A stretch of DNA of 64,000 nt from Eledone cirrhosa (lineage: Eukaryota). Below the pieces are notes generated by a model. It made no database searches and was not told where the DNA came from. It saw only the letters and a program-made list of their open reading frames with translations. The translations under genes were made by a program, and so were the position numbers. How positions within the stretch are numbered: the first letter of the stretch is position 1; the number at the start of each line of letters is the position of its first letter. The stretch spans positions 84,010,001 through 84,074,000 of the forward strand of contig OZ024744.1 in the NCBI GenBank assembly GCA_964016885.1, written 5' to 3'. Shown in pieces: positions 4,631-63,000 of the stretch.

Positions 4631-6483
4631 AGACAAGCCTGTCGCCCATCCCACTGAATACAAAAACAAAACACAAAAGTTAACATCACAACCTTTTGTG
4701 ATAGTAACAGTACCATCTCACAATGACATCACCACCACCGCCGCCACCAGCAACACCGCCTCCACCAACACAACAACAACTCAGATCAACAACGACAATA
4801 ACACCGACAGCCTCAATGTAAACACTGATGGCGGCGGCAACAGCAACAGCAGCAAACAAAAAAACAACAAGAGCAAGAACGACAACACCACCAGCAAGAG
4901 CAACGGAGGTACCACCTTTGCAGCGACAGCACCGAAAACAAAGCGCTTTTTCAATGTAGATATTAGCGATAAGGAGCAGCAGTTGGCCCAGGCGTGGATG
5001 TTAATTAAACGAGAGAAGTCCTGGGCTAAACTGACCATCCCGGAGGTGGAAGTAGCGACCATGTAAAGGAGGACGGTGTACTTTCGATGCATTTCAGTGC
5101 TGACACACAAAGTAGAACTCGCCAGCCAAGCAGAGGTCGAGGCTGCTTTGAGGTGTATCGGAAGTGACATCTAGTATATAGCAAGGGCCAAGCAGTTCTG
5201 TACCATCTCAGTACTGTTCAAAACCGAGGCCCTTGCTATTAAGCACTCGGTGACCCTCTGCAGAACGGAACGCATTATCATGCACCCGTCCCACACGGGC
5301 AAAAGGACAGTAAAGGTCCGCATTCCCAGGATCCCACCAGGAATGTATATATGATGGATCCTGGGATGCGTAATCGAGGAGGGGACAGACACTACTCTCC
5401 TAGATATCAAAAGGACAGAGAGAGAGAAGACTGGTCCGTAATGGATTGTGAGATTCTTCTCCAAATGAAACCAGAGGACATCAACAACATACCGTATTTT
5501 TCCCGCCTGCAAGACGGGACAACAATCCAATTAATCGCTGAGGGAGGAAGGCCGCACTGCTTCGTCTGCGGGGAAGCAACGCATCTGCAATCCTTCTGCC
5601 CTCAGCTAAAAAATGCAGGTGGTTGCAAATCTGCTTTGTTGCCAACGCCAGTGTCAGCACGGAAAGCTGCACCACCACCACCAAAAACAACACCAACAAA
5701 GACACGGGTAACCCCACTAACGTAAAAAAACAGCCGGACCACCACCAGCACCGAAACCAATCCAATGGGAAAACTAGGAAATCTCTCCCACTCCCCTACC
5801 CCTCCAATTATACACATATACAAAACAATAAACGCACACACAGAGACAGATACACTCACAGCCACAGACCCTTTGTCTTCCAGCAGCGAAGCTGAAGGAA
5901 AGCCCAAAAGTGCAAAAAAAAAAGCCCCAACAAAACACAAAAACATACACAACAAAAAATACAGACACAACTAACGCAAACACTTCCCCAATAACATCAG
6001 CACCAACAGCAACATCGACACCACCCCCACAATCCCCGAAACGCAAACAACCTAAACAAACACAAGTACAAATAAACACACAAATACCTGAAATTGCAGA
6101 CACCACACCTACTTCAAACACAGACATACCCGAAACAACATCACCAAAACCATCACCACCACAGTCACCAAAACGAAAACAAATAAAACCACACCAACAA
6201 AATGTTAAAAACTTCGTGCTTGTCAGAAGGGCCAATGATAAACTGATGGCCCTCTTAGCATGAAGCGAGGACGTTCAAACAGGGGGGGGGGGCTTTGAAA
6301 TGAGCACATTTGGCGTGCCAAAACATTTGCTTTTGGTCCGAATGTCGCTCGAGCCTTCATCAAGACGTGGGAACCCCGAATGTGAAACCCACATCGAGAA
6401 TTTTAATGGGCTTCCCAAAAGAAACCCCACCAACCATGGAGGTCGAACCACCCGACCTTCACAAGACCCCGGGAGGTAAGTAA
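4479..6483 (+). pseudogene. Tx1 ORF1 (gag-like nucleic-acid-binding protein), frameshifted
   Basis: Low-complexity T/N N-terminus, TFAA motif, zinc knuckle EGGRPHCFVCGEATHLQSFC (ORF 5351-5725), P/T/K-rich tail; ends ...KTPGGK* at 6481-6483. Confidence 0.8.
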
Positions 6484-6515
6484 ACCTTCCCTCTCTCTTT
6501 TAGCTTGCCAACATG
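6474..6515 (+). promoter_or_regulatory. Conserved ORF1/ORF2 junction: AGGTAAGT + pyrimidine tract + CAAC-ATG (also 34445-34477 on -, 49516-49558, 54076-54120, 61434-61477)
   Basis: Identical 8-mer matching the 5' splice-site consensus overlaps the ORF1 stop in all five copies; function is inferred. Confidence 0.7.
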
Positions 6516-9903: not shown

Positions 9904-10120
9904 GGGCGGTGGATTGGCAGTATCGGTAGAAGGTCGGACGCCATGCTTTGACGTATGGAGTTACGGCCCTTGCCATTCTGAGTTCAAATCCCGCCGAGGT
10001 TAACTTTGCCTTTCATCCTTACGGGTCGATAAAATAAAGTACCAGTAATACACTGGGTAATTGCTGGCCTTGTGCCAAAAAGTAGAAACAATTATTATTA
10101 TTGTTATTATTATTATTATA
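9904..10120 (+). mobile_element. Full-length tRNA-derived SINE (Deu/Nin-type central domain) with (ATT)n tail
   Basis: Box A tggcagtatcgg, box B gagttcaaatccc, core gcctttcatccttacgggtcgataaaataaagtaccag, tail gctggccttgtgccaaaaagtagaaacaattatt. Confidence 0.9.
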
Positions 10121-12258
10121 GTTGCATTTATCTTGCTTTATGTTCATACGAGTTATCACCAAGTCACAACCAGTGACCTCAAGAGACAACAAGGTCCGCC
10201 ATGTTCAAGAAAGAACATACATACACAGACATGCATCTTTAGGTGTTTAGACTTGTGATATACTTATATTGACAGACTCTTCCTTAGTATATGGGCAGTT
10301 CCCATTATTACTATCTTTTGTATTTCTCCTATACGCGGGTTTCCTGGGATTTGCGATAAGTAATCATTAGACCCCTTAGGTATCATTCCTAGAGCGCCTA
10401 CAACCACTGGTATTGTTTTAGTTCTCAATTTCCACATTTTTCCAACTTCTATCTCTAGGTCCTTATACTTGCTCAATTTTTAAAATGTTTTTATAGATAA
10501 ATTCTTGTCTATTGGAACCGACATATCAATTAGCAGGCATACCCTCTTTTTAAAGTCTTTTAGTATTAAATCAGGTCTATTTGCATCTATTTTTCGGTCT
10601 GTTTGGATGCTAAAGTTCCACAAGATTGAGATGTGATCTTTTTCAAATATGGGAGGTGGTTGATGCTCCCACCAATTCTTTTGATGGGCAGGTCAAAATG
10701 CTTACACATTATCCAATGTATGTATTGTGCAGCTCTGTCATGCCTGTTTAGGTATTCGGCATAATGGGCTGCATCCATTTTTTATTATGTTGGCTTGGTA
10801 ATTTTTTGTTGGCAGACACTGATCTTGTGCTGATATAATCAGTCCTTCAGTCTCCGATTTCAGTCCAGAGGATGCCAACCACTGATGGGTTAAAATGTTG
10901 TCAACATCAGGATTGTTAGCTCTTTCTGGGTATTTTCCATACAGAGGCTTTTCTTGCCATTTCTTAGCCAGTTTCTGTAGCAGTTCTTTCTTTGCAGTTA
11001 CTTTTACCTGCTTTGCTTTTCTGTGTTTTCCATTTCAGCAGTAAATGGGACTTCTGAAATTTGTAGTCCATTACTGTATCTTTGTGTATCTTTTGTAATG
11101 GAGTATGATCTAATGATGCTTTCGTGTTTCAAAACGAATTTGATCATCCAATCATGTGATTCCCTTAGATATGTAGATAATCCAATTTTTGCAGTTTTCA
11201 ACGCAATATCTAACTGGATTAACCCACGTCCTCCTTCTTTCCTAGGGAGATATATTCTATCTGCATCTGCCTTAGGGTGATGCATTCTGTGCATGGTTAA
11301 GAATTTTCTAATTTTTGTATCAAGCCTACGGATCTCTGTGCTTGACCAGTTGATGACATTGAAACTGTAGGTTACTACTGGTATGGCAAGCGTGTTTATG
11401 GCATCGATCCTATTCCTTGCATTCAATTCCGTTCTTAAGATTGCTCTTACTCTGCGGTAACATTCCTTCCTTATCCTTTCCCTCATTGTTTATGGCTTGA
11501 TTCCGTCTCCTTCACAAACACCTAGATATTTGTAAGTTTCCTTTTCATAAAGTTCTCATATCACATTCCCCCGATCAAGATTAATGTCTGAACTTTTCAG
11601 CAGCTTTCCTCTGGTGAACGTTGCTTTGGCGCATTTATCTAGTCCAAACTCCATTTTAATGTCATCACTGAACTGCTCCACAGTGGATAATAGCCCTTGC
11701 AATTGTTCATCATTTTTTGCAAATAGTTTCAGGTCATCCATGTAGAACAAGTGATTAATGGTTTTGTCGTAGACTTTATATCCATGTTTTGTTTCATTGA
11801 GCGTTTTACTTAATGGTATAAGTGCGATGCAGAATAAAAGCGGTGATAAAGAATCACCCTGAAAAATTCCACAATTAATATTAACTTCTCCAGCTTCCAG
11901 TGATTTTGTTTCACTATTCAAAAGAAGTGTCGTTTTCCATGTCTTCATACTGAATGACAAGATCCCCTGACAACGGGAGATATTTTGAAAATCTCTAAAC
12001 ATTTTTCAATCCAACTGTGTGGCAAACTATCGAATGCTTTTTTATAATCTATCCAAGCAATTGATAGATTTTTGTGTCTATTATGACAATCTTCCAGTAT
12101 CATTTTGTTAACCAAACGCTGATCCTTACAGCCATATGAGCCTCCTTTACACCCTTTCTGCTCATTGGGAAATAGGTCATTTGTTATCAGGTGGTCATAT
12201 GTATATTCAGTTAGGACTGATGTTAACATTTTATTCATTTTATTATACATTTTATACA
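10121..12258 (-). mobile_element. 5'-truncated R4/Dong-type non-LTR retrotransposon (RT + REL endonuclease)
   Basis: EQKGCKGGSYGCKDQ, AWIDYKKAFDSLPH, GIFQGDSLSPLLF, LFYMDDLKLFA, RIYLPRKEGGRGL, KYKDL, VVGALG, IQKIVIMGTAHILRK; closely matches 43284-45420; bounded by (TAA)n. Confidence 0.92.
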
Positions 12259-30893: not shown

Positions 30894-33800
30894 AGATAGG
30901 CAGATAGACAGATAGACAGATAGATAACTTTCTTTTTATTTGCCACCAGGGCATCAAAAATGGGACAAGTACAAAGGGGGGAGTTTACATGCAGAGGCGT
31001 CCACAATATGGAGGAGGCAATAACAAGATATAAAAGTATAAAAATAAAATAAAACATAACAAAATAAATTTCATAACAATATCCTCAATAGGGAGGAGGC
31101 GCCTTGGGGGGTCGCACACACCCCCGAAAAAAAGTGTGCAACCCTTCTCCTCAGGAGCACAGAGACGGTGTGCTCCCTTGGTCTTTCATCTTCCTCACCT
31201 ATAGTCTGATGTAGAGTGAAGGCCCATTCACACGGGCCATTCTCGCCAATTTCATCCATCTTTCATAAAAACGGCTGGGGTGCAGCACCTCTTTCTCTAT
31301 CCTGATCCTTCTTCCGAAATGATATCGGAAGAAACGGACCAGTTGTTGGCCAGAGAGAAAGGTGTCTTACCTCAGTCCTTTCAGACGCGTCCACCATACA
31401 ACCTCTTTCGCCATGGCTATTACGCACAGAAACACCGCCTCTCCTTCGTTTTTGAAGAGGGGAGGCGGCTTGATCGTTACAATAGACTCGGTGGTCAACC
31501 GGATCGGTCCCACCCTTGACAGCAATTGTTCGACATAGCCCCACAGATCAGCAATGCCCGAGCAGTGTACCAATGCGTGTACAACGGTTTCCTCGTGGCA
31601 CACGCATCTGGGACAGATCTTTTTCGAGGGGTCCCTACCCGGGCGCCCGTGTCTGTAGAGCCTTTCTCGAACAGGCAGAGCCCCTCGGTAGCACTGCCAG
31701 GCCAGGGACCTCTGGAAGTTATCCATGCGTCCCGGGCTGAATATCCTAACGAACAGGTTGTCCAGTTCGTCTTCCTCCATGCCTAGGGCTTCTCCGAGGG
31801 CGTCGTCGCACCTGCTAACCACCAGCCCTCTATAGAATGACGAGGTGGATTCTCCACTGACAGCCGGGTCCGCCTGCCAGAGAGCCGTGAGTGCCTGGGC
31901 ACACTCGGTGTGCCAGGCGCCCAGTTTTCTCGGTCTTTGCTTGACCCAGGATTGCAGCTCGGTGAGCGAGACGAGTCTGGGGAAGGCTCGCCTCACAAAC
32001 GGGGCCCACACCGGTTGACTGGTGAGGAATACCTGGAGGTGCCGTAGCCTTAATGCGTGTTTACGTATCATTAGCCACGGCAACCCCAGCCCTCCTTTCT
32101 AAGGGTGTTGACAGCAGATCGATCTCCTCACCATAGGAGCCCGCTTCTTCCAAAGGAATTGGAAGAGTGCACGCTCCATTTTGGCGAGCGTTTCCCTTGG
32201 GCAAGGCACAACGGTCAGGCGGTAGTAGATCACGGACGCTATATAAGTGTTCGCCACCTCTGCCCGACCTTTCAGGGACAGTTTGCACTCGGCCCACTTC
32301 TGGGTCAGTGCAAACACCCTGTTCGTTACCTCACCCCAGTTCTTCTCCACCTGGAGGTCTGGTCCGAACCAGAACCCGAGCAACCTCACCGGGCCCTCCG
32401 TCCAGCACCCGACGACGCCATCCCGGTTCTAACGGGATGCCCTGCAACAACTCCAACTTCCGCAGCAGTGGCTCTAGAGTCATACAGAAGGGAGGAGAGA
32501 GGGCACCCTTGTCGGATGGACCGCGCGATTTCGAACGGCTCCGAGAGGTAGCCGTTCACCTTGACCCTAGAGCAGATGCAGCTGCTATGCATGGTATTGA
32601 TCCAGCCCATGAAAACGGGTCCGAAGCCTGCCGCCGCTAGCACCGCATCCAGGTAACCATGGTCGACCCTATCGAACGCCTTAGATTGATCCAAGATGAT
32701 CAGGGCCCCACCAAAGCCGGGTTCGTTCCCAACCCTCTCTATGATGTATCGCATGAGGTGGATGTTGTCGTGGATGGACCTGGACGGGATAACACATGTC
32801 TGCGCATCTCCCACCAGGTTGCCCACGACAAGCGCCAACCTCTTTGCTAGCACCTTGGCCAAAATCTGTAACTCTGTATTTAGCAGAGTTATGTGCCTGA
32901 AATTATTCATATCGTCCCCCTTGTTCTCGTCCTTCCTCACTAGCGTGACTACGCCCTTGGTTACAGCACAGGGAATTCTCCCGTTCTGTTGCCAGTTGCA
33001 GTAGACCGCCTCGAGGAGATCGGGGAACAAGTCCGGCATAGCTAGATAGTGTACGTATGGAAGACCATCGAGACCCGGGGATTTGCGTTTGCCGCATTGG
33101 CTCAGCACGTCCTCTATCTCAGCGGCTGAAATCAGCTCCTCGCAGGACTTCCCTCCTTGCTCGAGAGACGCGGCAGGCCGTCGAGGTATGGACCGAAGTC
33201 CACATCCCCAACCGGCTCGCCGCCCCTTTCGAACAATCCGGCAAAGTGTTTTTGAAAAGCCTCGCACATCTGCTTAGGCTCAAGGATCACCCGTCCATCC
33301 TGGTCTAGCAAAGACCGGATAGTGGATCTGCTCCCTCTTTTGGCTTCTGTCACGTGGGCCCAGCTAACAGCTTTGGTCCCCTCGTTTCCCAGAGCACTAT
33401 TTTGCTTCGGACGATTCAGCCTTCGTGTTTCGCGTCGAAGAACTGGCCCAGGGCCGTTCTCAACGCTAACACTCTGGCCACGTCGCCGCTTCTAATTGCC
33501 TCTTCTACACTATCTACCAGCTCCCTTTCCTTCCTAGTTCTATTTGAGGCTAACTCCTTACTAAATTCTATAGAGGCTACTCTAATCTCCCTTTTGAGAG
33601 ATCCCCACCACCTGCTGTTGACGATGGCGCCCGTCAACCGCTCCTTAACTAAAGTGCTAATCCGGACCCTGTAAGCCTTACTTGCCGGTAAGGTCAAGTT
33701 GAGCTTCCAGTAACCGGGTCCCTGTCTATGCGTTCTGTTAAGGTTGACCATGCAGCTCACTAACTTGTGGTCTGAATAGCCAACCATGCTCATTTTTGGA

Positions 33801-35706
33801 CAACTTAAAAAGTCCTTATCCTTATTTGTAACTAAGAACCTATCTAGGTTCGACCTAGATGATCCGCTGCGATTTGTCCAAGTCCAGGTTGGCGTAGTCA
33901 GAAAATCTAGTCGATATCTATCGGCCAGGTCAAATCGACCGATTAACCCTTTGAGGCTATTACACCCTTCTCTATCGGGACAAGCCCCTACGTAGTCCCA
34001 ACGTGCATCTAGGATACCATTCCAGTCCCCCACTAATAGCAAGGAGCGGGACGTCCTTAGAAAAGTCTCCAGACGATGGAAGAAGTCCGGCCGCATTGAC
34101 CCGAAAGGGCCGTAGGCGGCTACCAACCTAAACGCTCCGCCTTCACCACTGCCAAGTTCCAGAACCACTAGTGGACCCTCCGGGTCCAAATGTACCGTCT
34201 GTGTTGCGAGACCCAGAATTTTTTGCAGCAGAACGACAACGCCACCCCCACCTCCTAGCTGACAGAGAGATGCGTGCATCTCAAAGTCATCAAAGGTGGG
34301 GGCCAGCTGTCGCATGTTGCTGATCCGGGCCTCGCAAATAACCATCACATCTATACGTTGTAGCCTGAGGTCATATAGAAGCATTGCTTGCTTCCAAGTT
34401 GAGCCCAGGCCACGCGCATTTAAACAGCCTACTCTTAGCATAGCCATGTTGGTGGTGAAGAGAAAAGGCACTTACCTCTCTGCGTCCCGGGTATCGGTTT
34501 GCACAATTTCCATGAGGGTGGGGGATGGGTTGTTGGGTGGGGTGGTGGTTTGTGGAAGTGTAGGGGCATCAGTGTGTTGTATGGTTGGGGTGTTTGGAGT
34601 TGTGTGAAAGTTTGGGGAGGGGGTGGGGTAGTTTTTTTAGGAGGACGCGGTTAATGGGCTCGACGCAGGGGAGGGGGCCCACGTCCTCTTTAAAGTTGTT
34701 TTTTAAAGTTTTATAAGTGTCCTTTGGGGCCTTAATCATTTTGAGGTGGGGGAAATCCCCTGCCTGGGTGAAGTTAGGCTCCTGGGATTTTATTAAATTG
34801 TTGTTGTACACAATGTTTAACAGTTTTTTGTTTCTTGTGTTTATGTATGTGTATGCATGTTTTTGTTTTTTGTGTGGTGTTTTTTTGTTTGCTGTTGTTG
34901 TGTGCTCTTTTGTGTTGGTATCAGTGTTATGTTTTGGGGAGGATTTGTTTTCATTTGTGTCTGAGGTGTGTTTTCTTTTTTTCTTTTGATTGTGTGGAAG
35001 TGCTCCTCCTCGTCTGACGACGAACTAGGGTCATCTTCCGCGTTGTAGGGGAGGGGTATATTTTCGGGTTGTGTTTGCGGTGCGGGTGTTTTGGAAATTG
35101 TTTTTTTTTTTAGTGGGGGGGATGGGTTGGACATTGTTTTGTTTTGGTTTGAGCTGTGGTTGTTGTTTTTGTAGTGGTAGTTGTGGTGATTGTGTTGGTT
35201 GTGCAGTTGTTGGTGGTGCAGGCAGGATTGGGGTTTTCTTATTAAGTTGGGGACAGACAGCCCTCAGGTGACCTCTGGTTCCACAGAGGTAACACGAGGG
35301 CCGCCTACCCTCGACGGTAATGTTGATGAAAATTTGATCATCCAGTATGACGCGTTCAGGGATCTGGGCAATCCTTTCGGGCCTCATTTGAACTACAAGT
35401 TCGAGGCTCGTTCCACTGAACGCGTCATCCGATGCCTTTCCCATGGACACCAGCGTGTCATCATCCAGGTTCAGGAAACCTGTCAAAACCCACCATATGT
35501 CCATAATCGGCAGGATTGTGTGGATTTTTATTTTTTGTGTCCTTCTACCCATATACGTAGGGTAGAAGGTGTACACGGTGGATGTAATTGGTTTGATGGA
35601 CAGTTTCACTGCTGTGTCCCTGTCCTTCATGCGAATGGATAGACTCCCGTAGAGTCTATCCTTCTGAATGAAGGTGATGTCCTTCATGACGTCTTTTAAA
35701 ACCAGC
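30894..35706 (-). mobile_element. Tx1 LINE copy B2, 5'-truncated in ORF1, embedded in (TCTA)n
   Basis: ORF1 knuckle EGRRPSCYLCGTRGHLRAVC; ORF2 from the ATG at 34447 (MAMLRVGCLNARG), GDWNG, YSDHK, LDQSKAFDRVDH, IRQGCPLS, CPRC...ETVVHALVHC; tail aataaaaagaaagttatctatctgtcta. Confidence 0.93.
31199..34447 (-). pseudogene. Tx1 ORF2 (APE-RT), frameshifted
   Basis: ORFs 33416-34471, 32386-33267, 32099-32389 and 31367-32083 are consecutive pieces of one APE-RT protein. Confidence 0.9.
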
Positions 35707-40954: not shown

Positions 40955-41673
40955 CACACACAGAAATGTATATATATTTCTTAGAACAAAATTATTATTA
41001 ATGTTTTGCTGTTCATAACAATTGGAATTGAAAAATTACTTTTGAAATTATTAGTTATTTTACTAATGCTTAGATATGTAAAAATGAAGCAATGTTTCTA
41101 ATAATTGTTTCTACTTTTGGCACAAGGCCAGCAATTACCAGTACATTACTGGTGCTTTATTTTATCGACCCCGTGAGGATGAAAGGCAAAGTTAACCTCG
41201 GCGGTATTTGAACTCAGACCGTAAAGGGACGTAACTCCATGCTATGAAGCATGGTGTCCGACTCTCTACAGATTCTGCCAATCCACCGCCCTAATGTCTG
41301 TACGTAATGAGCGAGTGAGAGGGGAGAGAAAGAAAGGCAGAGGTGAAGTGACGAAGTGACTCTCTCCTCCTCCTCCTCCTCCATCTCCCCATTCGTCACA
41401 GCGATAGAGGGGAGGAATGTTAGTGTGTTACAAAGAGAAAGAGTGAGGGTGAGAAAAACAGACAGACTAAAAGAGAGGGATAGCTGGAGAGAGAGAGAGA
41501 TAGCAACAGATACAGTACAGTAGCTAAGGGATGTATATATATTTCTGTGTGTATATATACATTTCTGTGTGTGTAATATATATATATATATACACACAGA
41601 AATATATATACATTTCTGTGTGTGTATATATATATATATATATATTACACACACTGAAATGTATATATATTTC

Positions 41674-41746
<73 letters not shown>

Positions 41747-42088
41747 CACACACAGAAATGTATATATATTTCTGTGTGTATATATATATATATATTACAC
41801 ACACAGAAATGTATATATATTTCTGTGTGTATATATATATATATATTTCTGTGTGTGTATATATATATATATATATTACACACACAGAAATGTATATATG
41901 TTTCTGTAGCACTCCTCAATTCCCCCTCTCTCCCTCCCGCTATCCCCCTCTTGTAGTCTGTCTCTTTCTTTCACTCTCACTCTCTCACTCTCTCTCTACG
42001 CGTGCACAAAAAACATTCGCACGCGCGCCCGTGTTTCCACTGTCGGACAGACAGACAGAGAAATTGCTGGTTATATATTATAAGGAGA
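40600..42088 (-). mobile_element. Helitron-like non-autonomous element(s) expanded by microsatellites and a SINE insertion; related to 57405-57620
   Basis: 41915-42080 is the reverse complement of 57415-57530; 40655-40703 is the reverse complement of 57572-57619. Confidence 0.6.
41101..41292 (-). mobile_element. tRNA-derived SINE
   Basis: Reverse complement of the 9904 SINE. Confidence 0.88.
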
Positions 42089-43283: not shown

Positions 43284-46200
43284 CAGTTGCATTTATCTTG
43301 CTTTATACGAGTTATCACCAAGTCACAACCAGTGACGTCAAGAGACAACCAGGTCCGCCATGTTCAAGAAAGAACATACATACTCACACATGCATCTTTA
43401 GTGTTTAGACTTGTGATGTACTTATATTGACAGAATCTTCCTTAGTATATGGGCAGTTCCCATTAGTACTATCTTTTGTATTTCTCCTATACGCGGGTTT
43501 CCTGGGATTTGCGATAAGTAATCATTAGACCCCTTAGGTATCATTCACAGAGCGCCTACAACCACTGGTATTGTTTTAGTTCTCAATTTCCACATTTTTC
43601 CAATTTATATCGTCAGGTCCTTATACTTGCTCAATTTTTCAAATGTTTTTATAGATGCATTCTTGTCTATTGGAACGGACATATCAATTAGCAGGCATAC
43701 CCTCTTTTTAAAGTCCTTCAATATTATATCAGGTCTATTTGCATCTATTTTTCGGTCTGTTTGGATGCTAAAGTTCCACAAGATTGAGATGTGATCTTTT
43801 TCAAGTATGCGAGGTGGTTGATGCTCCCACCAATTCTTTTGATGGGGCAGGTCAAAATGCTTACACATTATCCAATGTATGTATTGTGCAGCTCTGTCAT
43901 GCCTGTTTAGGTATTCGGTTGGAGCTATAGGACTGCACATAGAAATTATATGATCAATAGTCGCTGGTTGTTTTTTGCATACACGGCATAATGGGCTGCA
44001 TCCATTTTTTATTATGTTGGTTTGGTAATTTTTTGTTGGCAGACACTGATCTTGTGCTGATATAATCAGTCCTTCAGTCTCCGATTTCAGTCCAGAGGAT
44101 GCCAACCACTGATGGGTTAAAGTGTTGTCAACATCAGGATTGTTAGCTCGCTCTGGGTATTTTCCATACAGAGGCTTTTCTTGCCATTTCTTAGCCAGTT
44201 TCTGTAGCAGTTCTTTCTTTGCAGTTACTTTTACCTGCTTTGCTTTTTCTGTGTTTTCCATTTCAGCAGTAAATGGGACTTCTGAAATTTGTAGTCCATT
44301 ACTGTATCTTTGTGCATCTTTTGTAATGTAATATGATCTTTTGATGCTTTAGTGTTTCAAAACGAGTTTGATCATCCAATCATGTGATTCCCTTAGATAT
44401 GTAGATAAGCCAATTGTTGCAGTTTTCAACGCAATGTCTAACTGGATTAATCCACGTCCTCCTTCTTTCCTAGGGAGATATATTCTATCTGTATCTGCCT
44501 TAGGGTTATGCATTCTGTGCATGGTCAAGAATCTCTGTGCTTGACCAGTTGATGACATTGTAACTGTAGGTTACTACTGGTATGGCAAGCGTGTTTATGG
44601 CTTCGATCCTATTCCTTGCATTCAATTCCGTTCTTAAGATTGCTCTTACTCTGCGGTAACATTCCTTCCTTATCCTTTCCCTCATTGTCGAGTGCTTGAT
44701 TCCGTCTCCTTCACAAACACCTAGATATTTGTAAGTTTCCTCTTGATCAAGTTCTCTTATCACATTCCCTCGATCAAGATTATTGTCTGAACTTTTCAGC
44801 AGCTTTCCTCTGGTGAACGTTGCTCTGGCGCATTTATCTAGTCCAAACTCCATTTTAATGTCATCACTGAACTGCTTCACACTGGATAATAGCCCTTGCA
44901 ATTGTTCATCATTTTTTGCAAATAGTTTCAGGTCATCCATGTAGAACAAGTGATTAATGGTTTTCTCATAGATTTTATATCCATGCTTTGTTTCATTGAG
45001 CATTTTACTTAATGGTATAAGTGCGATGCAGAATAAAAGCGGTGATAAAGAGTCACCCTGAAAAATTCCACAATTAATATTAACTTCTCCAGCTTCCAGT
45101 GATTTTGTTTCACTATTCAAAAGGAGTGTCGTTTTCCATGTCTTCATACTGAATGACAAAAACCTCCTGACAACGGGGGATATTTTGAAAATCTCTAAAC
45201 ATTTTTCAATCCATGCTTTTTTATAATCTATCCAAGCAATCGATAGATTTTTGTGTCTATTATGACAATCTTCCAGTATCATTTTGTTAACCAGAAGCTG
45301 ATCCTTACAGCCATATGAGCCTCGTTTACACCCTTTCTGCTCAATGGGAAATAGGTCATTTGTTATCAGGTGGTCATATGTGTATTTAGTTAGGACTGAT
45401 GTTAAAATTTTATACATTGTGGTCAAGCAAGTTATCGGTCTGTAATTTTTGGGATTGTTTGTCTCATCATTCTTCGGAAGCAGGAATGTAATGCCGTTAA
45501 CTAGCCATGATGGTATCTTTCTGGCTCCTTAACTATTTCATTGTAAAGTTGGGCTAACAGCTCATGAGACTCTGTGAAGGCATTTATCCAAAAGTTTTGT
45601 ATTTTGTCTTTTCCTGGGGATTTCCATTTGCTGGTTTTTCTTAGAGCCAAGCGCAACTGTTCAACTGTTATATTTTCCCATATTTGTTCCTCAAGGTGAG
45701 CTGTATCTTTCATTTGTCTGTCTGTCCATGGGGCATGTATGTTATGAAATTTTTCTTCGGCCCAGATCTTTTCCCAGAATTCTTGCACTTCCTCCTTGGG
45801 TGGTATTGATTTAGCAGTTATTGTTGACTTACCAATTTTTCTGTAGAAGTTTCTTTGGTTGTTTTTGAACATATTATTGTCCTTATAGAATCTAGATCGT
45901 TTTTCAAAGCGCCTTATACGAGCAGCTTTGGCCGACACTTTTTGCTTGATTATTTCTATCAGCATGTCTATGTCACATGTTGATTTTATACTGTACTTTC
46001 TTTTCAATTTTCTAAGTTTAGTTTGTTTAACATGTTCACCTACTTTATAGTTTGTTAAAATTTCTATGTCAGATCGGAGAAGGTTTATTTGGCGATTGAT
46101 GTTCTCTTGCCAAGTAGATTTCTTATGGGAATTCCTTTGTTTTTTCATCTTCACTCCACATAAGTGAGTGGTGACTTTAGCCGATGCATAATAGAGATGA

Positions 46201-47114
46201 TTTAAATCAGTAATGTTTAGTTTGTTTGTGATGATAATGTTTTTGAGAATTATGTTAGTCTTGTGTATTATCTTTTAGTTCTGTTTGGAGTTCTGGATCT
46301 TAGGGAGGGTGTCTCGTTGCCCCATGTCAGATTCTTTCATTTTCATCCATTCGATCATAATTTCATCCTTCAAGTTGGCAAGTTCATTCTCATTCATTTC
46401 TTTATCATTTACGATCTCATTATTTTCATTTGGAGTTTCATCCTGAGCATGCACTCCCTCCACTTTTTCGATCCTTTCTTTAATTTGTTCTGTTGCCAGT
46501 GATTCCACCCCAACCCTGGGATTCGAAGTGTTACAGTTTACCTCGTTTTCACTGACACATGTTTCATTTTCCCTTCGCTGACTTTGTGCTAATAGCTTGA
46601 TCTGATCAATTTCTATATCAGTTAGTAACTTTTTTCTTACAATATCTCTTCGTATATTGGCTAGTTTGTTACTGTCAATATAGCCTCTGTTTTCGGGATG
46701 TTTCTTTTTCCAGTTGATATATGTCTGTTCTGCATTCGATGTATTTGATGGGTAGTACATGGCAGTGTAGAAAGCCTCAAGTACTTCTTTATTATCTTCC
46801 CTTGACCATTTTTCTCTCTTTTTCTTTGGATTTCTTGGTGGTGAGCATGGAGGGCCAACAGTAGGAGTATTCCGGTTATGGGAGGTCTCCAGCTCCGAAG
46901 TGATGGGAAGGTTTGAACCATTAGCTGATTTTTCGACCACAGTCTGGTTCCTCTCTGAGGGACGCGGCCCTTTTTGACCCGGGTGACGGCCGATCCGGTA
47001 TGAGATTTTATCATTAGACATTGACTTTATTTTGTCGCGTTTTATCCTTATCGGCCAAGGGGTAATCATTTCGTGTTACCACTTCTAGAACGAGTGTCAA
47101 CCAAGACTAGAGGG
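43284..47114 (-). mobile_element. Near full-length R4/Dong-type non-LTR retrotransposon inserted in (TAA)n
   Basis: Single long ORF broken into pieces 46275-47069, 45501-46154, 44506-45426, 44349-44558 and 43605-44261; KWKSPGKD, YMDD RT, CRVC...DHIISMC knuckle, RPDII...DMSVP...KLSKY REL endonuclease; (TAA)n at both ends. Confidence 0.94.
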
Positions 47115-47171: not shown

Positions 47172-50100
47172 GGCGACCTACGTAGTAAATAGTATCATCG
47201 TCAGCTCCGCAAAGGTTTGTTATTTTCAGTTATTTAAAATTGCCATTTTTGGAAAATTTTTATTGTTAATTGTATATAAGTGCACATACATTGATTTCTG
47301 AAAAGGACACTCAAAAATATTGGGGCCTTGAGCCCAAAATTTAAACTTTTTATAATTATCAAACAAAAAATTTTTCTTTGAAAAATAATGGATGACTCAG
47401 ATTCACTCCTTCCTCACAATCCAACACCTCACACCGACACCACCATTGTAAATATTGTTACGTTTGCCAACACAGGAATTGTAAGCAGTAGCAATATTTT
47501 ACATTTGTCTCAGGCAGACGTTCATTTCCCGCCATTACCAATGACTGCAGGTGTTAAAGCCGCCACCACCGCGACAACCCCACCACCACCACCACAGCGA
47601 CAACTGAAACAAAAGGGAAGATAAAGTAACTTATGATATCGAAATGAATTCAACCAAAATGAACTCTTCCACACCGAACACCACTGACGCCACCACCACC
47701 ACAACTGAAACTAGAATTAACAATAGCAAAAATAACGATAACAACAGCAATAATGAAATTAAGAAAACTACCCTGAGTTTTGCCAGAGTAGCAAAAACGT
47801 GCGAAGCGATCCAGGTAACTCAGGAAGAATTAGACGAAGCCAAAGGAATGGTAAAGAAAGATGGGTACAGGGTCAGTCTCACCCCCCCCCTCCCAAACAC
47901 ACACACACACACCTAATAAAATGGAGCAACGTAGCCTATGCACCGTGTCTTATCGGGCAATAAACATAAAATCGCGCCGAGTAAAACGGGCATCCGAGTC
48001 CCAAATCCAAAAAGTTTTGGGACATGTGTGGGCAAAAAAACCCACATCAGACGTGGGCAGAAGTATGGAACCGTGGACGTGTTCTTTTAAACAGCACAGG
48101 AGGCCAGAGAACACTCCATGTCCCCATTAATAAGTGACGACTTCACACTCATCCCTAGCTATTGTGGCCACAGACTTGTGAAGATCAGGGTGACACACGT
48201 TCCACCGGCCATCGAAATTCCCTGGCTAATGGCTGCCGTCCTCGCCGGCATCGAGGCCAACAAAAAAATAATAGAAATAGCAAAAGAAATGCAGGAGAAC
48301 TGGTCCGGATCTGGGATGGAGCTCCTGATCCAAGCGGACCATAAAAGCATTGAGGAGATCCCAGAGGTAATAGACCTCACTGACGGCAGCCACCTCACCG
48401 TAATCGTCGAGGGCAGAAGACCAAGGTGTGTCGTTTGTGGTGAAGGAACCCACCTAAGGACTTCTACCCTCAGGCTAAAAGGTTGAGGCCATCTCTCTTA
48501 CCCACCCCAGTGACTCAACCATCAACACCACCAGCAGCAGAAATGGCACAACAATTGTAGCAGCAACACCAGAAGCAACTGTAACAGCAACAACCCCAGC
48601 AACAGTAGCAAAACCAACACCACCACCACCCAAGGCCCCAGAACTAGCACCAGCGTCTACACCATCCACCACGCCACAATCAAAACCAACGCCTGTGGAG
48701 GATTTTCCACTCCCCGGCTTATCGCAACTGGAGACAGATTGTGACGACGAGGAGTGGGAAACGGTATCAGGAAAAAATAAAAGAAGAAACCAAAAAAGAA
48801 AAATTCTCTTATCTCACCCTCCAAAAACCAAATACAGAGGGAAACAAATAAATTAGCAAACAGGAAAGTTAAAACAGATATGCCACCATCCACACCAGCA
48901 TCACCAACCCTATCACCACAAACACCAACACCATCACCATCATTAACCCCAACACCACCATCACCAACACCACAAAAGTCACCAAAAAGCGTAACAGAAA
49001 CAAACCCCCAACAAACGCAAACAAAACAAAACAACCAAAACGATACACACTACACAGCATTAAATTTGAACAAGGCGGTGGATTGGCAGTATCAGTAGAG
49101 GGTCGGACGCCATGCTTTGAAGCATAGAGTTACCTCCCTGTATGATCTGAGTTCAAATCCCGCCGAGGTTAACTTTGCCTTTCATCCTTACGGGGTCGAT
49201 AAAATAAATTACCAGTAATGCACTGGGTAATTGATAGCCTTGTGCCAATTATTAAACCAATTATTACTATACATGCAACACAACACCAGCATCACAGAAA
49301 AAGACTACACAACAACCCCAAAATTCACACCACCTCCACACATACAAATCACTCGCATCACACAGAAAACGTACACAACACTAAAACAAAAATTCCCCAA
49401 AGACATCGGAGACTTCGGACAAACACTCTCCAGGAGGATTTATAAGGACATTCTTCCGGAGGAGGCCACAAGCAGTGAAAAGGATGGACAAACCATCCTT
49501 CCTCTACGAGAAGTAAGGTAAGTGGTCTTTCCCATCTTTTCCACTCCATTTCAACATGACCTCACACAGAATAGGCAGCATAAATGCGCGTGGCTTGGGG
49601 TCGTCATGGAAGCTGGGCCACCTGCTCAACGACCTCAAGTCACTAAACATAGATGTAGTGGCCATCAGCCAGACCAGAATCTCCGAAGAACGGGCCTTTG
49701 CACCGATCTTCGGGGGCTACGATGTGTAAGCATCTCCCAGCCGTCCGGGATCGGGGGTAGGAGTTGCTATGCTTTTTCTGAGAAGTTTGGATCTCGCCAT
49801 ACGGGCCATCTTCCTGGACCCATAAGGTAAGTTGGTGGTGCTAGACGTGACCGGCGGAGAGGGGCAAGCTTTCAGGCTAGTGGCCGTCTATGCCCCGACA
49901 GGAGCAGGGCGGCCTGATTTCTTCCCGCATCTGGAGACCTTTCTTGGAACGTCCCGCTCTTTAGTGTTGGTGGGCGACTGGAACTGGATTTTAGATGCAA
50001 GCTGGGACTGTGTGGGATTAGCGGATAGGGGAGGGGGGTGCAAGAGACTCACCAACCTGCTCAGGCGTTTTGAACTGTCTGACAGGTACCGATTTGATTT

Positions 50101-52741: not shown

Positions 52742-55700
52742 ACAACAAAGAAAAACCAATCTCGTTTGCAGGTGTCGCAAAGAACCTGGAAACCATCCTT
52801 ATAACAAATGATGAATTACAGGAAGCAAGGAAGATGGTGATGAAAACTGGACAGCGAGAAATCTGCAAGTCAGCGGAAGAATTTCTCGAAACCCAACAGC
52901 ACTGTACGGTCACGTACAGTACAGTAAGCACAAAATCACATAGGGTTGAAAGAGCCTCAGAGGCTGCGTCTGTCCGCGTCTGTCCTCGTCGGAATCGAGC
53001 ACAAAACAACTGTACTGAAAGTACAGAAAAAAGTACGACAAGATTGGATCGGCGCCTCCATTGAGATGTTAATTCAAACCAACCAGGAGTGCATCGAAGC
53101 TAGCACGGATGTGATAGACTTCGATAACGTCACTCAACTTCCCATAAGTGTTGAGGGCAAACGCCCGAAATGCTTTCGCTGTGGATCGAAGACTCACCTC
53201 AGGGCCTTCTGCAACGAGAAGACCCTGAGAAAGAAGAAAACCCCCCTCCTTCCGAAACCGGCTCCTCTTCTACCAGCAACAGGACAGGCGGCAAGCAGGA
53301 ATGATAGGTCCGTGCCACCCATACCCACGCCACGGAAATCAAGAACAGCAGCAGCAGTGGAAGTATTAACAACAACAACAGTAATACCAAATGAAGCTGC
53401 AACAGAGACTCCACTGCAAACATCACCAACAACAAGTGAAAGAGTGGAGCTGGTACCCCTCCCCGACCTCACAGAATCGGACATGGAGTGTGAGGTGGGA
53501 GAGAGACGGCAAAAGGTCGCAAGAAGGCACAAACGCAGAAGCAGCGCATCGTCGCCTTCGGAAGAAATGAAAAAAGGGTTAAGGTTACTGCAAAGAGACT
53601 TACAGCAGCAACACCACCAACACCATCAAAACCCACACTAGCACTACCATCACCACCGGCGGCAACCCCACCGCCAGCAACACCACCAGAAGCACCAACA
53701 TCACAAACACAACAACAAAACACGCACACACAGCAACAACGACAAGAAAATAGCAGAACCACACCCCACCCCCAGAAAAAGAAATGCACAGCAATAAATA
53801 CACACAACAAGAAACTAATGACTTACATAATTGAACACAGACATTTCACAACACGACTACATAATACCAGCACCAATCAAAACACCAACGAACATAAGAG
53901 TGGTAAGAATTTCACAGAAATATTACACAAACATTAAAATGAAATTCCCCAACGCAGTTGGTGATTTCAGAGACCTAGGAGGGACACTCAACCGAAGAGT
54001 ATACTCGGATATACTCACAGAAGAGCCGACGACCAGCCGAGGGGACGGTTCAACGGTCCCTTCACCAGACGATCAAGGTAAGTAATCCTTTCTCACTTGC
54101 CCCGTTCCTCACCCAACATGGCCGTATTCAGGATCGGAAGTGTAAACGTGCGTGGCTTGAGCTCGGTTTGGAAGCAGGGTCACTTGCTTAACGAGCAGAT
54201 CACTAAACATAGATGTGGTGGCCCTCAACGAGATGATAATTTCCGAAACGCAAGCTTTCGCACCGATTTTTGACGGTTACGAGGTGTACGCATCTCTGAG
54301 CCATCCGGTAGGGGGGGGGGGGTTCGGAAAGGGTTGGGTCTCGCCATACGGACCATTTTCCTGGACCCAGAACGTAAGGCGGTGGTGCTGGACGTGAACG
54401 GCACCGAAGGCAACGATTTCAGGCTAGTAGCCGTCAATGCCACGGCAGGGGCAGGACGGCCAGATTTCTTCAGATGTCTAGAGACCTTTCTGGGAACGTC
54501 CCGCCCTTTAGTGTTAGTGGGCGACTGGAACGGTATCTTGGATGCACGTTGGGATTACGTGGGGTTAGTGGATAGGGGAGGAGGTGCAAGAACTTCACCA
54601 ACCTGCTCAGACGGTTTGAACTCTCTGACAGTTATCGACTGGATCACCCGAATGTGCCAATGTGGACATGGACAAACCGCATCGAGTCATACAAATCGTA
54701 TCTAGATAGGGTATTCTGCAGGGAACTAGATAAGGCTAGTATAGGTTGTCCACAATTTAAAATAGTCGACTACACGTACACCAATTTGTGATCTGTGAGA
54801 TCGACATAGACAGACTTCATAGACAAGGACCCGGTTACTGAGAGCTGAACGCGTCTTTCACGGCGCGCAAAGCCTACAGAGACTGGATTAGCGTATTAGT
54901 TAAGCGGGTGTTGACGGGAGCGGTCGTCAAAAACAGGTGGTGGTTTGCTCTGAAAAGGGAAATTAAGTAGAGTCGATTATTTTAGAGGAAAATAGAGTAG
55001 AGGGAGAGCTAGTGAGAAAGCTAGAAGAGGCGTTTAGGACAGGCATCGCAACCGACTTGCTTGCGGCGAGATTGGCACTCGGCCAATTCTTCAACGCAAA
55101 ACACGAATGCTGCGTTGTCAGAGCTAGAGCGCGTGCTCTGAAACACGAGGGGATGAAAGCCGTCCAATGGACCCGGGTGGCAGAGGCGTGACGTGGCAAA
55201 AAAGCCACAATTATGTCTTGGTCTGACCAAAACGGGCGCCATTTGCTCGAACACGAGCAGATGTGTGAGTCTCTTCAGCAGCACTTTGCTGAACTGTTCG
55301 GGAACGGCGGCGGGCCGGGTCTGAGTATGGACTTCAGTGCATACCTCGACTGACTTCCTCGGCTCTCGACGACCGCAGCACAGTGTTGCGAAAAGCCACT
55401 AACAGCCGGTGAAATACGGGAAGCGATGGCTAACAGCACGAGGGGTAAATCGCCGGGTTTGGATGGTCTGCCCTACGAGCTTATGCATTTATGCCAGACT
55501 TGTTCGGTGACCTCTTGGCAGACGTATACTGCAACTGGCAGCAGAACGGGAGCATTCCCAGTTTTGTGAGCCGGGGAACGATGGCGCTGCTGAGAAAAGA
55601 CCCGAACAAGGGGAATGTTATCGATAACTTCAGGCCCATAACTCTGCTAAACGCAGAGTTCAAAATTTTGACCAAGGTGTTAGCGACAAGGTTGCCACTT

Positions 55701-57404
55701 GTCGTCGAGGATCTAGTGGGAGAGACGCAGACATGCGCCATTCCGGACAGATCGATACACGACAACCTCCACCTCATGCGATACATCGTAGAGAGGGTAG
55801 TTAAGGAACCTGGCACGGTTGAGGCCCTGATTAACTTGGATCAACCATCGGTACCTGGCGGCGGTCCTCGAGGCAGCCGGTTTTGGGCACGTTTTCAGGG
55901 GTTGGATCGGTGCGATGTACAGCGACATCTGCTCCGTTGTGAGGGTAAACGGTCACCTGTCGCAGCCGTTCAGCATCATGCGCTCGGTCCACCAGGGTTT
56001 TCCCCTCTCGTCCCATTTGTACGTATTGGCTCTCGAGCCGTTACTGCACAAACTGGGGGCGATGAGAGGCGTCCCACACGAATAAGGATGCGGGAAATCC
56101 GAGTCAGCTTACGCCGACGACTACAGCGTTGTGGTGTCGAGCACCAGACACGTCCAGATGCTCGGCCCCGCTCTCAAGGAATACGAAGCGGTGACAGGGG
56201 CAAAGATAAACCAAGAAAAGTCGGTGGGCTTGCAGCTCGGCACCTGGAGAGGCAAGCCCATGCCGTTCGACAGTATCGTGGGGCATTGGACGGAGGGACC
56301 GGTTAAATTGCTCGGGGTCTGGTTCAGACCGGACCTCCAAATGGAGAAAAACTAGAGCGAGATGACGAGCAGGTGGCCTCCCTCGCCCAGAAATGGACCG
56401 AGAGGAAGCTTTCCCTGAAAGGCCCGGCGGAGGTGGCGAATGCGTACATCGCATCCGTCATCTGCTACAGCCTCACCGTCGTTCTCTCACCGTTCGTCTC
56501 CTTGGCGGAGCTGCAGTCCTGGGTCAGGAAAAGACCGACGGATAGCGCTTGGAAACTGGAATGGCTCCAGGTGCTCACCGTTCTCTGCCAGCTGGGCACC
56601 TGTATCGGTGGAACATCCACCTCGGCGTTCTATAGAGGACTATTAGAGGGGAAGAGCGACGATGTTCTTGGAGAGATCCTGGGCGTCGAAGAAGATCAGC
56701 TGTTTGCTCTCTTCCGGAGAACTTTCAGCCCAGGGCCTATGGATAACTTCCAGAAATCCCTAGCCTGGCAGTGCTACCGGGGAGCGTTGCCGGTTCGAGA
56801 TAAGCTCTACAGACACGGAAGTGCCGTCAGCCGAGCCTGTCCGAAATGCGTGCAGAGCGACGAAACCGTTGTGCACGCACTCGTTCAGTGCCCGAGGATT
56901 GCTGACTTGTGGAGCTCTGTCGAACAGTTGCTGTCGCGTGTAGGACTGATCTGGTTATCGACTGAGTCCATTGTGCAGATTGTCTCGCCGTCTTCCTTCG
57001 AGGAAGAAGGGCATACGGTTTTCATCTGCCTGGTGTCCATGGCGAAAGAGATTGTGTGGCGGACAAGGTTGAAAAGGTTAAAGACAGACACTTTCCTCTT
57101 AGGCGAATCCCTGATTAACTTTGTCAAGTTTCACTTGAAGAGGAAAATCAGGGTGGAGAGGCAAGTGCTGCTTTCTAGCAAGTTTGTTGAAAGGTGGGTG
57201 AATGTAGTGAGAATGGTCCGAGTAAACGGGACCGCTCTGAATATACGCTTGTAGTTTGAGGAATGAAAAAATTGAGAGAGGGCGCTTGCCCTGGTGGTCA
57301 GGGTGGCCGTGGTCTTTTGTGTGGTTTTCGCCAGAAGTAAGCCTCGGAGGTTTCCCCACTATTGGGAAATTTTTCATTGTTTTAATTTTCATTTTTATTG
57401 TTTA
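52241..57404 (+). mobile_element. Tx1 LINE copy E, 3' UTR cut by a Helitron-like insertion
   Basis: ORF1 has poly-N/S, ISFA and EGKRPKCFRCGSKTHLRAFC, stop at 54083-54085; ORF2 runs from the ATG at 54118 (MAVFRIGSVNVRG) to TAG at 57254 with RT and CPKC...ETVVHALVQC motifs. Confidence 0.93.
52454..52748. repeat. (AGC)n/(AAC)n trinucleotide expansion within Tx1 ORF1
   Basis: Directly visible; encodes poly-Ser/Asn. Confidence 0.9.
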
Positions 57405-60053: not shown

Positions 60054-63000
60054 AATATTGGGGCCTTGAGCCCAAAATTTAAACTTTATATTTATCAAAC
60101 AAAAAATTTCTTAGAAAAATAAAACATGGACGACATTCAGCTACCAAAATCTGCTGACAGCTTTCCTAACAGACTAACATTCCCCCCCCCCCCCCCAACC
60201 ACCACCACCACCACCACCACCACCATTGTAAACCTTGCTACGGTTGCCAAAACTGAAAATATAAGTAATAGCAGTGGCAATTATTTAGATTTGTCACATG
60301 CAGACATGAATTTCCCGCCATTACCAATGTCTATATGTGTTAAATTCACCCCCCCCCCCACCACAATGTCAAAAAGAACAACCAACACCACTGATACCAC
60401 TACCACAACCACCATCACCACTGAAACTAAAAATAAAAATAACAAAAATAACAATAACAACAACAGCAACAACAATAAGAATAACAACAACAACATCAAC
60501 ATCAGCGCAAGACCAAATGTGTCGTTTGCTAAAGCGGTAAACAAAAATGAAACGGTTGAGATAAGACAGGAAGTATTGAATGAAGCCAAGCGAGTGGTAA
60601 AAAAATATGTTTACAGGGTCACACCAATGACTCAACCATCAAAACCAGCAGCAGAAATGGCAGCAACAACTGTAGCAGCAACAACAGAAGCAACTGTAGC
60701 AGCAACAACCCCAGCAACAGTAGCAAAACCAACACCACCACCACCCACCACGCCAGAATTAGCACCAGTGCCTCCACTACCCTCCACGCCACAACCAAAA
60801 CCAACGCCTATGGAGGAATTTCTACTCTCCAAGCTATCGCAACTGGAGCAAATTGTGACAACGAGGAGTGGCAAACTGTATCTGGAAAAAAGAAAAAAAA
60901 GAAACCAAAAAAGAAAAAAATTATCTTCCTTCGCCCTCCAAAAACAAAATGCAGAGCGAAACAAACAAACAAACTAACAAAGATGTTAAGACAGCTATGT
61001 CACCACCCACACCAGCATAACCAGCCCTATCACCACAAACACCAACACCATCACCATCATTAACCCCAACACCATCATCCCCAACACCACAAAAATCATC
61101 AAAAAGCGAAACAGAAACAAACCCACAACAAACGCAAACAAAACAACCAATACACCCTACACAGCATTAAATTTAATCAACAAACAATTATTACACTACA
61201 TCCAACACAACACCAGCATCACAGAAAAAGACTACACAACACCCAGAAAATTCACACAACCCACACATACAAATCACTCGCATCACACAGAAAACATACG
61301 CGACACTAAAAATAAAATTTCCCAAGGACATCGGAGACTTCCGACAAACACTTTCCAGGAAAATTTATGAAGATATCCTTCCTTCACAAGCAATGAGAAG
61401 GAAGGAAAAACGATCCTTCCTCTACGAGAAGTGAGGTAAGTGGTCTTTCCCATCTTTTTCCACTCCTTTTCAACATGACCTTACTCAGAATAGGCAGCAT
61501 AAATGCGCGTGGTATGGAGTCGTCATGGAAGCAGAGCCACCTGCTCAACGACCTCAGGTCACTAAACATAGATGTGGTGGCCATCATCGAGACCAGACTC
61601 TCTGAAGCAAGAGCCTTCGCACCGATCTTCGGCGGCTACGATGTATACGTATCTCCCAGACGTCCAGAATCGGGGGGAGGAGTTGCTGTGCTATTTCGGA
61701 GAGGCTCCAATCTCGCCAAACGGGCAATCTTCCTGGACCCAGAAGGTAAGTTGGTGGTGCTGGACGTGACCAGCGGAGACGGGCAAGCTTTCTTCCGGCG
61801 TCTGGGGAACTTTCTTGGAAAGTTCCACTCTTTAGTGTTAGTGGGCGACTAGAACGGGATCTTAGATGCACGCTGGGAGTGTTTGGGATTAGCGGATAGG
61901 GGAGGAGGGTGTAAAAGCCTCGCAAACCTGCTCGGGCAGTTCAATGTCTGACAGTTACCGTCTGGATTTCCCGAATGTGCCAAAGTAGACATGGACAAGC
62001 CGTATCGGGTCATCCAGCTCTTATCTAGATAGACTATTTTGTAGGGAAATAGATAATTCCAGCATAAACTGTCCACAATACAAAATAGTAGACTACATGG
62101 ATCATAAATTCGTGATCTGTTGACTTAGATAGGCTTCATAGACAGGAACCCGGCTACTGGAAGCTAAACGCGTCATTAACAGCGCGCAAAACCTACAGAG
62201 ACCGGATTAGCGAACTGGTTAAGCGGGTGTTGACGGGGTCCATCGTCAACAACAAATGGTGGTTTGCTCTGAAAAGAGCGATTAGAATAGAGTCCATTAG
62301 GTTTAGTAAAGTTTTAGCAATAGAGAAAAATAGAGCAGAGGGAGAATTAGTTAGAAAATTAGATGAGGCGCTTAGTAAATGTATCGCGATGGACGTACTT
62401 GCGGCGAAATTGGCCCTTGACGAATTCTTCAATGCAAAGCACGAAGGCTGCGTTGTCAGAGCTAAGGTGCGTGCTCTCACACAAGGGGACGAAAGCCGTT
62501 TAATGGGCCCGAGTGGCGGAGGCCCATCGTTTCAACAAAGCCACGATCCGGTCTTTGGTGGACTACGACGGGCGCATGCTACTCGATCCCGGGCAAATAT
62601 GTGAAGCTATTCAGCGACACTTCACACAGCTGTACGGGGGCATCGGCGGGCCGGCCCGAGTGATGGACATTAGTGCCTACCTCGACGGACTGCCGCGGCT
62701 CTCAGCCACTGAGGCAGATTGTTGCGAAAAGCCGATAACAGCCGCTGAAGTACGGGAAGCAATGACTGGCTGCACAAAGGGTAAATCGTCTGGTTTGGAT
62801 GGTCTGCCCTACGAACTTTACGTACACATGCCAGACTTGTTCGAAGGCCTCTTGGCGGACGTCTACTGCAACTGGCAAACGAACGGGAGAATTCCCAGCT
62901 CTGTGAGCCGAGGAGCGGTGGCCCAGCTGAGAAAGGACCGGAACAAGAAGGATAATAGATAAGTTCAGGTCCATAACTCTGCTAAATACAGAGTTCAAGA

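Follow-up and report, generated by a model that had tools for sequence, protein, structure and literature searches.

The window, by which we mean the whole 64-kb stretch of DNA analysed, contains five copies of bicistronic LINEs, designated A, B, D, E and F (Table 1). In all five, the motif AGGTAAGT closes ORF1, and the ORF2 that follows matches endonuclease, reverse transcriptase (RT) and zinc finger. The copies in the window are broken; the 3.0-Gb genome also contains intact relatives, and reading frames were taken from those. All five motif positions named in a preliminary description of the window were verified. Altogether, AGGTAAGT matched the window eight times, against a mean of 2.32 matches in shuffled sequences, of which 1 in 100 reached eight. 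The remaining three matches lie at 42456 and, within ORF2 endonuclease coding sequence, at 49825 and 61744.

Several further claims of the preliminary description held on measurement. The ORF2 ATG follows the GT of the motif by 37, 28, 38, 40 and 39 nt in the five copies, within the 28-40 nt first given, and the spacer between them consists of 74-82% pyrimidines, with an AG found solely in the spacer of A. The two registers of the ORF1 stop were confirmed in long open ORF1s of relatives, with an R-stop in B (593-595 aa) and in the D' subfamily (698 aa) and a GK-stop in A'' (636 aa). The two sites proposed as splice acceptors are indeed the ORF2 stops of B and E. Other claims had to be revised: D and F are 85% identical over 2.9 kb and form one subfamily, so that the five copies represent four lineages and not five divergent LINEs. 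Likewise, the ORF1 tails, described as unalignable between subfamilies, are not wholly so: those of D and F share 79% identity in their final 300 nt, and those of D and E align at 48% amino-acid identity.

Table 1. Features of the five LINE copies in the window
Feature	Position	Strand	Remark
Canonical poly(A) hexamer in ORF1 of A	6182..6187	+	294 nt upstream of donor
Donor motif, element A	6474..6481	+	GT at 6476; ORF1 phase 1 (GK-stop), phase from intact relative A'' (636-aa ORF1)
Spacer of A	6482..6512	+	Pyrimidine-rich; sole window spacer with AG; ORF2 ATG at 6513
ORF2 stop of B	31199..31201	-	Candidate acceptor of the preliminary description; use not seen in retrocopies
Spacer of B	34448..34469	-	Pyrimidine-rich; ORF2 ATG at 34447
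Donor motif, element B	34470..34477	-	ORF1 phase 2 (R-stop)
Poly(A) hexamer in ORF1 of B	34789..34794	-	319 nt upstream of donor
Poly(A) hexamer in ORF1 of D	49203..49208	+	315 nt upstream of donor
CAG (49473-49475) and D-type ORF1 tail after it	49473..49517	+	Homologous point is the E-type ORF1 join in the chimeric D' subfamily
Donor motif, element D	49516..49523	+	Phase 2; ORF2 ATG at 49556
Poly(A) hexamer in ORF1 of E	53793..53798	+	285 nt upstream of donor
Donor motif, element E	54076..54083	+	Phase 1; exon edge 54077 is the end of the E-type ORF1 in D' chimeras; ORF2 ATG at 54118
ORF2 stop of E	57252..57254	+	Candidate acceptor of the preliminary description; ORF2 stop confirmed
Donor motif, element F (D's subfamily)	61434..61441	+	ORF2 ATG at 61475

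ORF2 gave Pfam matches to Exo_endo_phos and RVT_1 and one to zf-RVT that stayed under the curated threshold, and its best solved relative was human L1 ORF2p (E 4e-48), followed by R2 (3e-19). ORF1 is a separate upstream frame of 570-731 aa. None of the three ORF1s scanned had a Pfam match, and a CCHC knuckle (CxxCxxxxHxxxxC) could be read in B. At their 3' ends, B-like elements run into TATC repeats, A and D into ATT repeats, and E and T1 into fixed sequences that are not repeats, as expected of a Tx1-like target preference, and no poly(A) tail followed the hexamer at the LINE 3' ends (L068, L323, L339, L325). Judged by these features, the elements belong to the L1/Tx1 group of APE-type LINEs, and membership of the Tx1 clade is plausible. 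The Tx1 elements Kibi, Koshi and Keno likewise have two ORFs with an APE endonuclease, an RT and a C-terminal zinc finger, and insert into microsatellites or fixed targets; unlike here, the accessible text on them mentions no junction donor (PMC4494074, Kojima 2015). Tandem copies of our elements lie about 5.7-5.9 kb apart. One array (G000:C1:423365359-423418069) comprises ten tandem A'' copies at a spacing of about 5.84 kb, by self-adjacent insertion or local amplification.

Some B copies elsewhere in the genome are 5'-truncated inside the spacer (L014, L022 and L024, at -14, -18 and 0 from the ORF2 ATG), and six others start in a cluster at -197 to -236 from that ATG. Apart from the five LINEs, the window holds a different RT-encoding element (43605-47075, minus strand) with a partial copy at 10092-12239, the two being 93-94% identical. 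Upstream of F, a region at about 59500-60100 gave no Pfam match; its translation reads like what we take to be a Helitron-type helicase region. A 556-nt imperfect palindrome at 41434-41989 is 79% identical to its own reverse complement.

Conservation of the donor

Copies were sampled blind to the donor, using a pattern from the ORF2 N-terminus that found 13,539 matches in the genome. From 30 of these matches, further listed matches and neighbouring stretches we drew 70 distinct junctions, forming 17 clusters at 90% identity. Donors were scored with a matrix for human-type sites, at a threshold of 7 bits and no more than 65 nt from the ORF2 start. By this measure, 67 of the 70 donor-blind copies had a donor of at least 7 bits, compared with a background of 5-10 of 87-99 windows per element (6-10%) elsewhere in the elements. 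With a human-type weight matrix, the junction donor also ranked first among the 268-371 GT sites of every full-length element analysed (7/7).

We then compared one copy from each of 13 families, with +1 and +2 fixed by anchoring. G at -1, G at +5 and T at +6 were invariant, -2 was A in 12 families, and +3 and +4 were always purines (A/G); flanking positions reached 31-85%. A fourteenth family (L119), excluded from this comparison, has T at +5. Apart from this one family, the donor is complementary to the 5' end of U1 in the manner of a U2-type 5' splice site, wobble at +3/+4 being confined to A and G. Contrary to the preliminary description, the octamer is not fixed genome-wide: there are variants with GTAGGT, GTGAGT, GTAATT or CG preceding the GT, and the D' exon is one that ends in CG.

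The position of the donor relative to the reading frame varies. It lies in ORF1 phase 2 in B, D', T1, T7, T10 and T11 (probably also in T12), in phase 1 in A and E, and in phase 0 in T8, where a 611-aa ORF1 reads through the site and ends 36 nt beyond. The ORF1 stop codon is TAA, TAG or TGA depending on the family, and its distance from the donor spans -4 to +36 nt. The donor is placed 13-52 nt ahead of the ORF2 start, and most families have a spacer of 24-52 nt with the donor on its 5' side. Donor conservation is independent of frame and acts on nucleotides, its variation fits the pairing tolerance of U1, and the earlier conclusion that the nucleotide motif is conserved rather than the peptide stands. 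As far as sequence can tell, the motif is a real, selected U1-type element.

T8 has no in-frame ATG where ORF2 begins, but an ATA that shares bases with the ORF1 TAG, which suggests non-AUG reinitiation or a -1 shift. Members of this family (L087, minus strand, ORF2 start near 2277; also L089 and L092) have an open ORF2 of 1,145 codons with the ATA in good start context.

A more distant relative was found on animal-like contigs in the MAG record CAXXMW01. This LINE family is 40-41% identical in ORF2 and carries, in 37 of 38 loci, a donor just past the ORF1 stop, 13 nt before the ORF2 ATG and without a pyrimidine tract; since the loci overlap and come from a single record, they were counted as one lineage. 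LINEs at 23-31% identity lacked the motif. Among 80 metagenome loci, the 37 inspected for the junction showed partial matches at the stop only in L238 and L193; the site was absent from other LINEs on contaminant contigs (10/10 inspected), and nothing was found in the viral contigs searched. Since it is present in the 40-41% relative and absent from LINEs at 23-31%, the motif is lineage-wide but no general property of L1-like elements. Contigs full of eukaryotic LINEs, most likely due to host contamination, occur in GTDB MAG records that carry bacterial labels (L273-L309 and L312, which are CAXXMW01; L310 and L313-L321).

Donor-edge chimeras between families

An off-register scan of the tails of 131 distinct junctions revealed three inter-family joins, all ending at -1; its remaining rows either matched these joins a second time in overlap or came from indel-interrupted alignments left out of the count. 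In these three chimeras, the donor exon edge is joined to a CAG in the ORF1 tail of another family, and each of them recurs in the donor-blind samples (L028, L035, L038). D' has an ORF1 that shares 88-93% identity with that of window E and stops being E-type exactly at the exon edge of E. Past the join, the next 43 nt (85%) and ORF2 (91-97%) are D-type, starting after the CAG that corresponds to window 49473-49475, and one extra G restores the frame to give the 698-aa ORF1. The D' pattern had 2,398 genome matches, and 99 of the first 100 have the D' form, from which we conclude that the chimera founded a subfamily of about 2,400 copies. In lineage H, a T12-type tail runs to the T12 edge, where the final 23 nt of a B-type tail, those that come after a CAG, take over (15 of 30 loci viewed). 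Searching from the acceptor side, 13 of 20 matches had the same join and 7 were point mutants. The third chimera joins T12 ORF1 at its edge to the tail of H after another CAG (L377, L379, L381, L414).

With 12, 12 and 20 nearby AG-ending alternatives, the joint chance of all three joins falling at the donor edge is about 3.5e-4. The joins share a 2-nt AG with the partner, which template switching would favour as well, and LINEs are known to swap 5'UTR/ORF1 modules by template switching. Two of the three events have the same upstream family, and the CAG of D is a poor acceptor, with purine-rich sequence upstream. A local survey of 149 loci gave a background of about 1e-4 junctions per base (42 junctions in 403,556 nt). 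Two edge deletions, L356 (3-nt overlap, no AG) and L461 (ambiguous), are single copies; they fit this background and add nothing to the case for splicing.

Given where the joins fall, it is likely that splicing now and then exchanges segments between LINE families. We further propose, tentatively, that the ORF1-end donor may be a built-in exchange point: tandem read-through RNA would be spliced to the CAG in the ORF1 tail of the next copy, skipping the poly(A) site, and the spliceosome would thereby make new LINE subfamilies, including D'.

Candidate roles of the ORF1-end donor

For the donor itself we favour a reading to which we give an even chance: it may be a U1-binding site on mostly unspliced RNA that the spliceosome occasionally uses. 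U1 snRNP would bind the ORF1-end donor of a full-length RNA that retrotransposes unspliced, and bound U1 would carry transcription into ORF2 by preventing the RNA from being terminated or polyadenylated early, in analogy to EVD. Occasional use by the spliceosome would join the ORF1 of one family to the tail and ORF2 of a tandem neighbour, either through read-through splicing in tandem arrays or through an RT jump onto a 5' exon released by the first step. With TIA-1-type factors, a pyrimidine run downstream of a donor aids U1 recruitment, and the run past the GT could assist in this way.

The distribution of poly(A) hexamers bears on what U1 might protect. Of 67 copies, 36 have a hexamer in ORF1 that precedes the donor by 270-360 nt, resembling HIV, where a poly(A) site lies upstream of the major donor. 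It shifts column and frame within a stretch rich in N, K and I and does not sit at a homologous column; the hexamer of A may be a by-product of N/K/I codons, and four outgroup ORF1s had none. In ORF2, five of six elements lack a canonical hexamer, leaving little obvious downstream site for U1 to protect, and the sequence scan found no ORF2 hexamer common to more than 3 of 13 families.

The donor of EVD, a Ty1/Copia element of Arabidopsis, is conserved, and U1 protects the unspliced full-length RNA that is required for mobilisation (PMC5580714, Oberlin 2017). In both systems a U1-type donor is conserved near the end of the structural-protein region. According to the accessible text of the same source, however, EVD belongs to the LTR elements and has a single gag-pol ORF with a defined intron and acceptor, whose splicing creates the GAG stop, whereas these LINEs are bicistronic and have an ORF1 stop of their own and a donor in any phase. 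By analogy, their donor would work most like that of Copia/EVD, but a Copia-type arrangement combines a conserved intron and acceptor with a coupled early 3' end, and the sequence scan of 13 families revealed no conserved acceptor besides AGs derived from coding sequence.

A 5' splice site also blocks Restrictor without splicing (PMC12211998, Mimoso 2025). This likeness, a strong donor aiding elongation without being spliced, fits the donor-like sites that B, T8, A'', T1 and the outgroup carry close to the start of their 5'UTRs; however, the effect is described, in the text available, for the initially transcribed region, and the junction donor lies about 2 kb into the RNA. No spliced copies were matched for the 5'UTR donor of B, out of an uncounted copy total. 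The 5'UTRs look intron-like (L068:1918-2133; L323, L326, L087, L285, L293, L294), several with a pyrimidine-rich, acceptor-like CAG before the ORF1 ATG. The ORF2 stop doubles as a donor in B (9.3 bits) and a similar site lies near the outgroup stop, but this is not general. Past the ORF2 stop, the outgroup (L278:4624-4690; L274, L273, L277) has a second donor followed by a pyrimidine run and an AG. Evasion of HUSH was considered as a role and rejected, since HUSH protection is described as independent of a 5' splice site (PMC8770142).

Human L1 RNA contains donors too, and its spliced forms (SpIREs) can retrotranspose (PMC5860796, Larson 2018). The donor studied there lies in the 5'UTR and is attributed to a RUNX3 site, and the spliced copies are, in the accessible text, dead ends. 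The donor described here, by contrast, closes ORF1, and one of its edge chimeras became a subfamily of about 2,400 copies. Among the edge matches viewed, we found no SpIRE-like copies missing an intron within one element at the junction donor.

A regulated, Copia-like splice may instead produce an ORF1-only subgenomic RNA via an acceptor in ORF2 or the 3'UTR, perhaps with an early 3' end, and so raise ORF1p over ORF2p. By analogy with the plant Ty1/Copia precedent (PMC5580714) we regard this as possible but rather unlikely. It would employ the strongest donor of the element, good 3'UTR acceptors exist in D' (8.9 bits), the outgroup (9.3) and T10 (7.1), and joining to the ORF2 stop would preserve the ORF1 end in B. 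Apart from the missing conserved acceptor, however, ORF1 is already the first cistron, and the ORF2 stop, which the preliminary description had offered as acceptor, proved a poor candidate: it is TAA in D-type families, and none of eight candidate retrocopies of the B family was spliced to it (forward-strand matches only).

To find retrocopies of spliced RNA, we looked for ORF1 ends with something other than xT next to them, a search that misses exons with T as second base. The junction was intact in 876 B copies versus 4 altered and in 2,143 D/D' copies versus 41 altered, and no spliced copy was seen among the altered edges (B, 0/4; D/D', 0/30 viewed of 41). For T12, 30 of 32 altered edges were viewed; 12 were point or small changes and 18 were chimera matches, two matches lay in one element, and there was no within-element splice. 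A and T8 each gave 0/2 spliced copies, T1 gave no matches, and the 19 edge matches of T7 included one ambiguous 129-nt deletion. Across B, D/D', A, T1, T8 and T7, the changed edges viewed amounted to point changes and small indels, plus two deletions found once each. Thus no ORF1-only retrocopy was present among the viewed edge matches of B, D, T12, A, T1, T8 and T7, and joins of ORF1 to the 3'UTR exactly at the AG, which the preliminary description had suggested looking for, did not turn up in them either. This argues only weakly against an ORF1-only RNA, because a transcript that lacks ORF2 or the 3' tail would seldom be retrotransposed.

In fission-yeast telomerase RNA, the spliceosome performs the first step only. 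If it did so here, ORF1 and ORF2 would end up on separate RNAs, the 3' end of the ORF1 RNA would be free, and RT jumps onto this end would give chimeras. We consider this improbable, even if it would account for edge joins with short overlaps, for the poor acceptor of D, for L356 and for the three B copies that start inside the spacer. Most families have their ORF1 stop past the exon edge, which would leave the released piece stopless, and the spacer is short for a branch point. Moreover, L356 is expected by chance, and the 5' ends of B also cluster near -200; none that aligned starts at the GT, and no 5'-truncation hot spot at the donor was seen among B copies.

It seems just as improbable that the motif is an ORF2 translation signal for termination-reinitiation that merely resembles a donor. 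Its place 13-52 nt before the ORF2 start would suit such a signal, and the stop-start overlap of T8 is much like that of SART1 (PMC3894237), a source that calls LINE ORF2 initiation unresolved. SART1, however, has no spacer in the text available, unlike most families here. Further, the variation of the motif obeys U1 wobble while its distance from the stop does not stay constant (-4 to +36 nt), similar sites occur in 5'UTRs and after ORF2, and chimera breaks fall at the exon edge.

We think it very unlikely that the motif is a functionless inherited accident, a stop codon beside G bases, and the chimeras ordinary template switches. Every stop codon is T-R-R, the families in this genome trace to one ancestor in the tree, and LINEs at 23-31% identity do without the motif; but it persists where the stop moves away (T8, outgroup), tops the GT sites in 7/7 elements and outlasts its flanks.

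Removal of a short intron over the spacer, fusing ORF1 to ORF2 as the preliminary description had entertained, is largely refuted: T12 and A'' do have good acceptors 36-37 nt downstream, that of T12 in frame, but most spacers contain no AG, the donor lies in phase 0, 1 or 2 or, in the outgroup, after the stop, and the B, D/D' and T12 edges gave no such retrocopy; among about 3,000 B and D copies no ORF1-ORF2 fusion retrocopy was found, which argues against a fusion RNA because such an RNA would carry ORF2 in cis.

The open literature that we searched listed no conserved donor where ORF1 of a LINE ends. The donor described here bears on how two ORFs are expressed from one intronless LINE RNA and on how 5'UTR/ORF1 modules are swapped. 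As it is frame-independent and common to elements with 41% ORF2 identity, a part played by U1 in LINE transcription could be tested at one nucleotide, and many copies have an intact ORF2, making a reporter or retrotransposition assay practical. If the donor is an exchange point, the product would be a complete bicistronic hybrid that combines a new promoter and ORF1 with the ORF2 of a neighbour, and the donor-edge chimeras would preserve in the genome, in a form that can be dated, the possible origin of subfamilies through the spliceosome.
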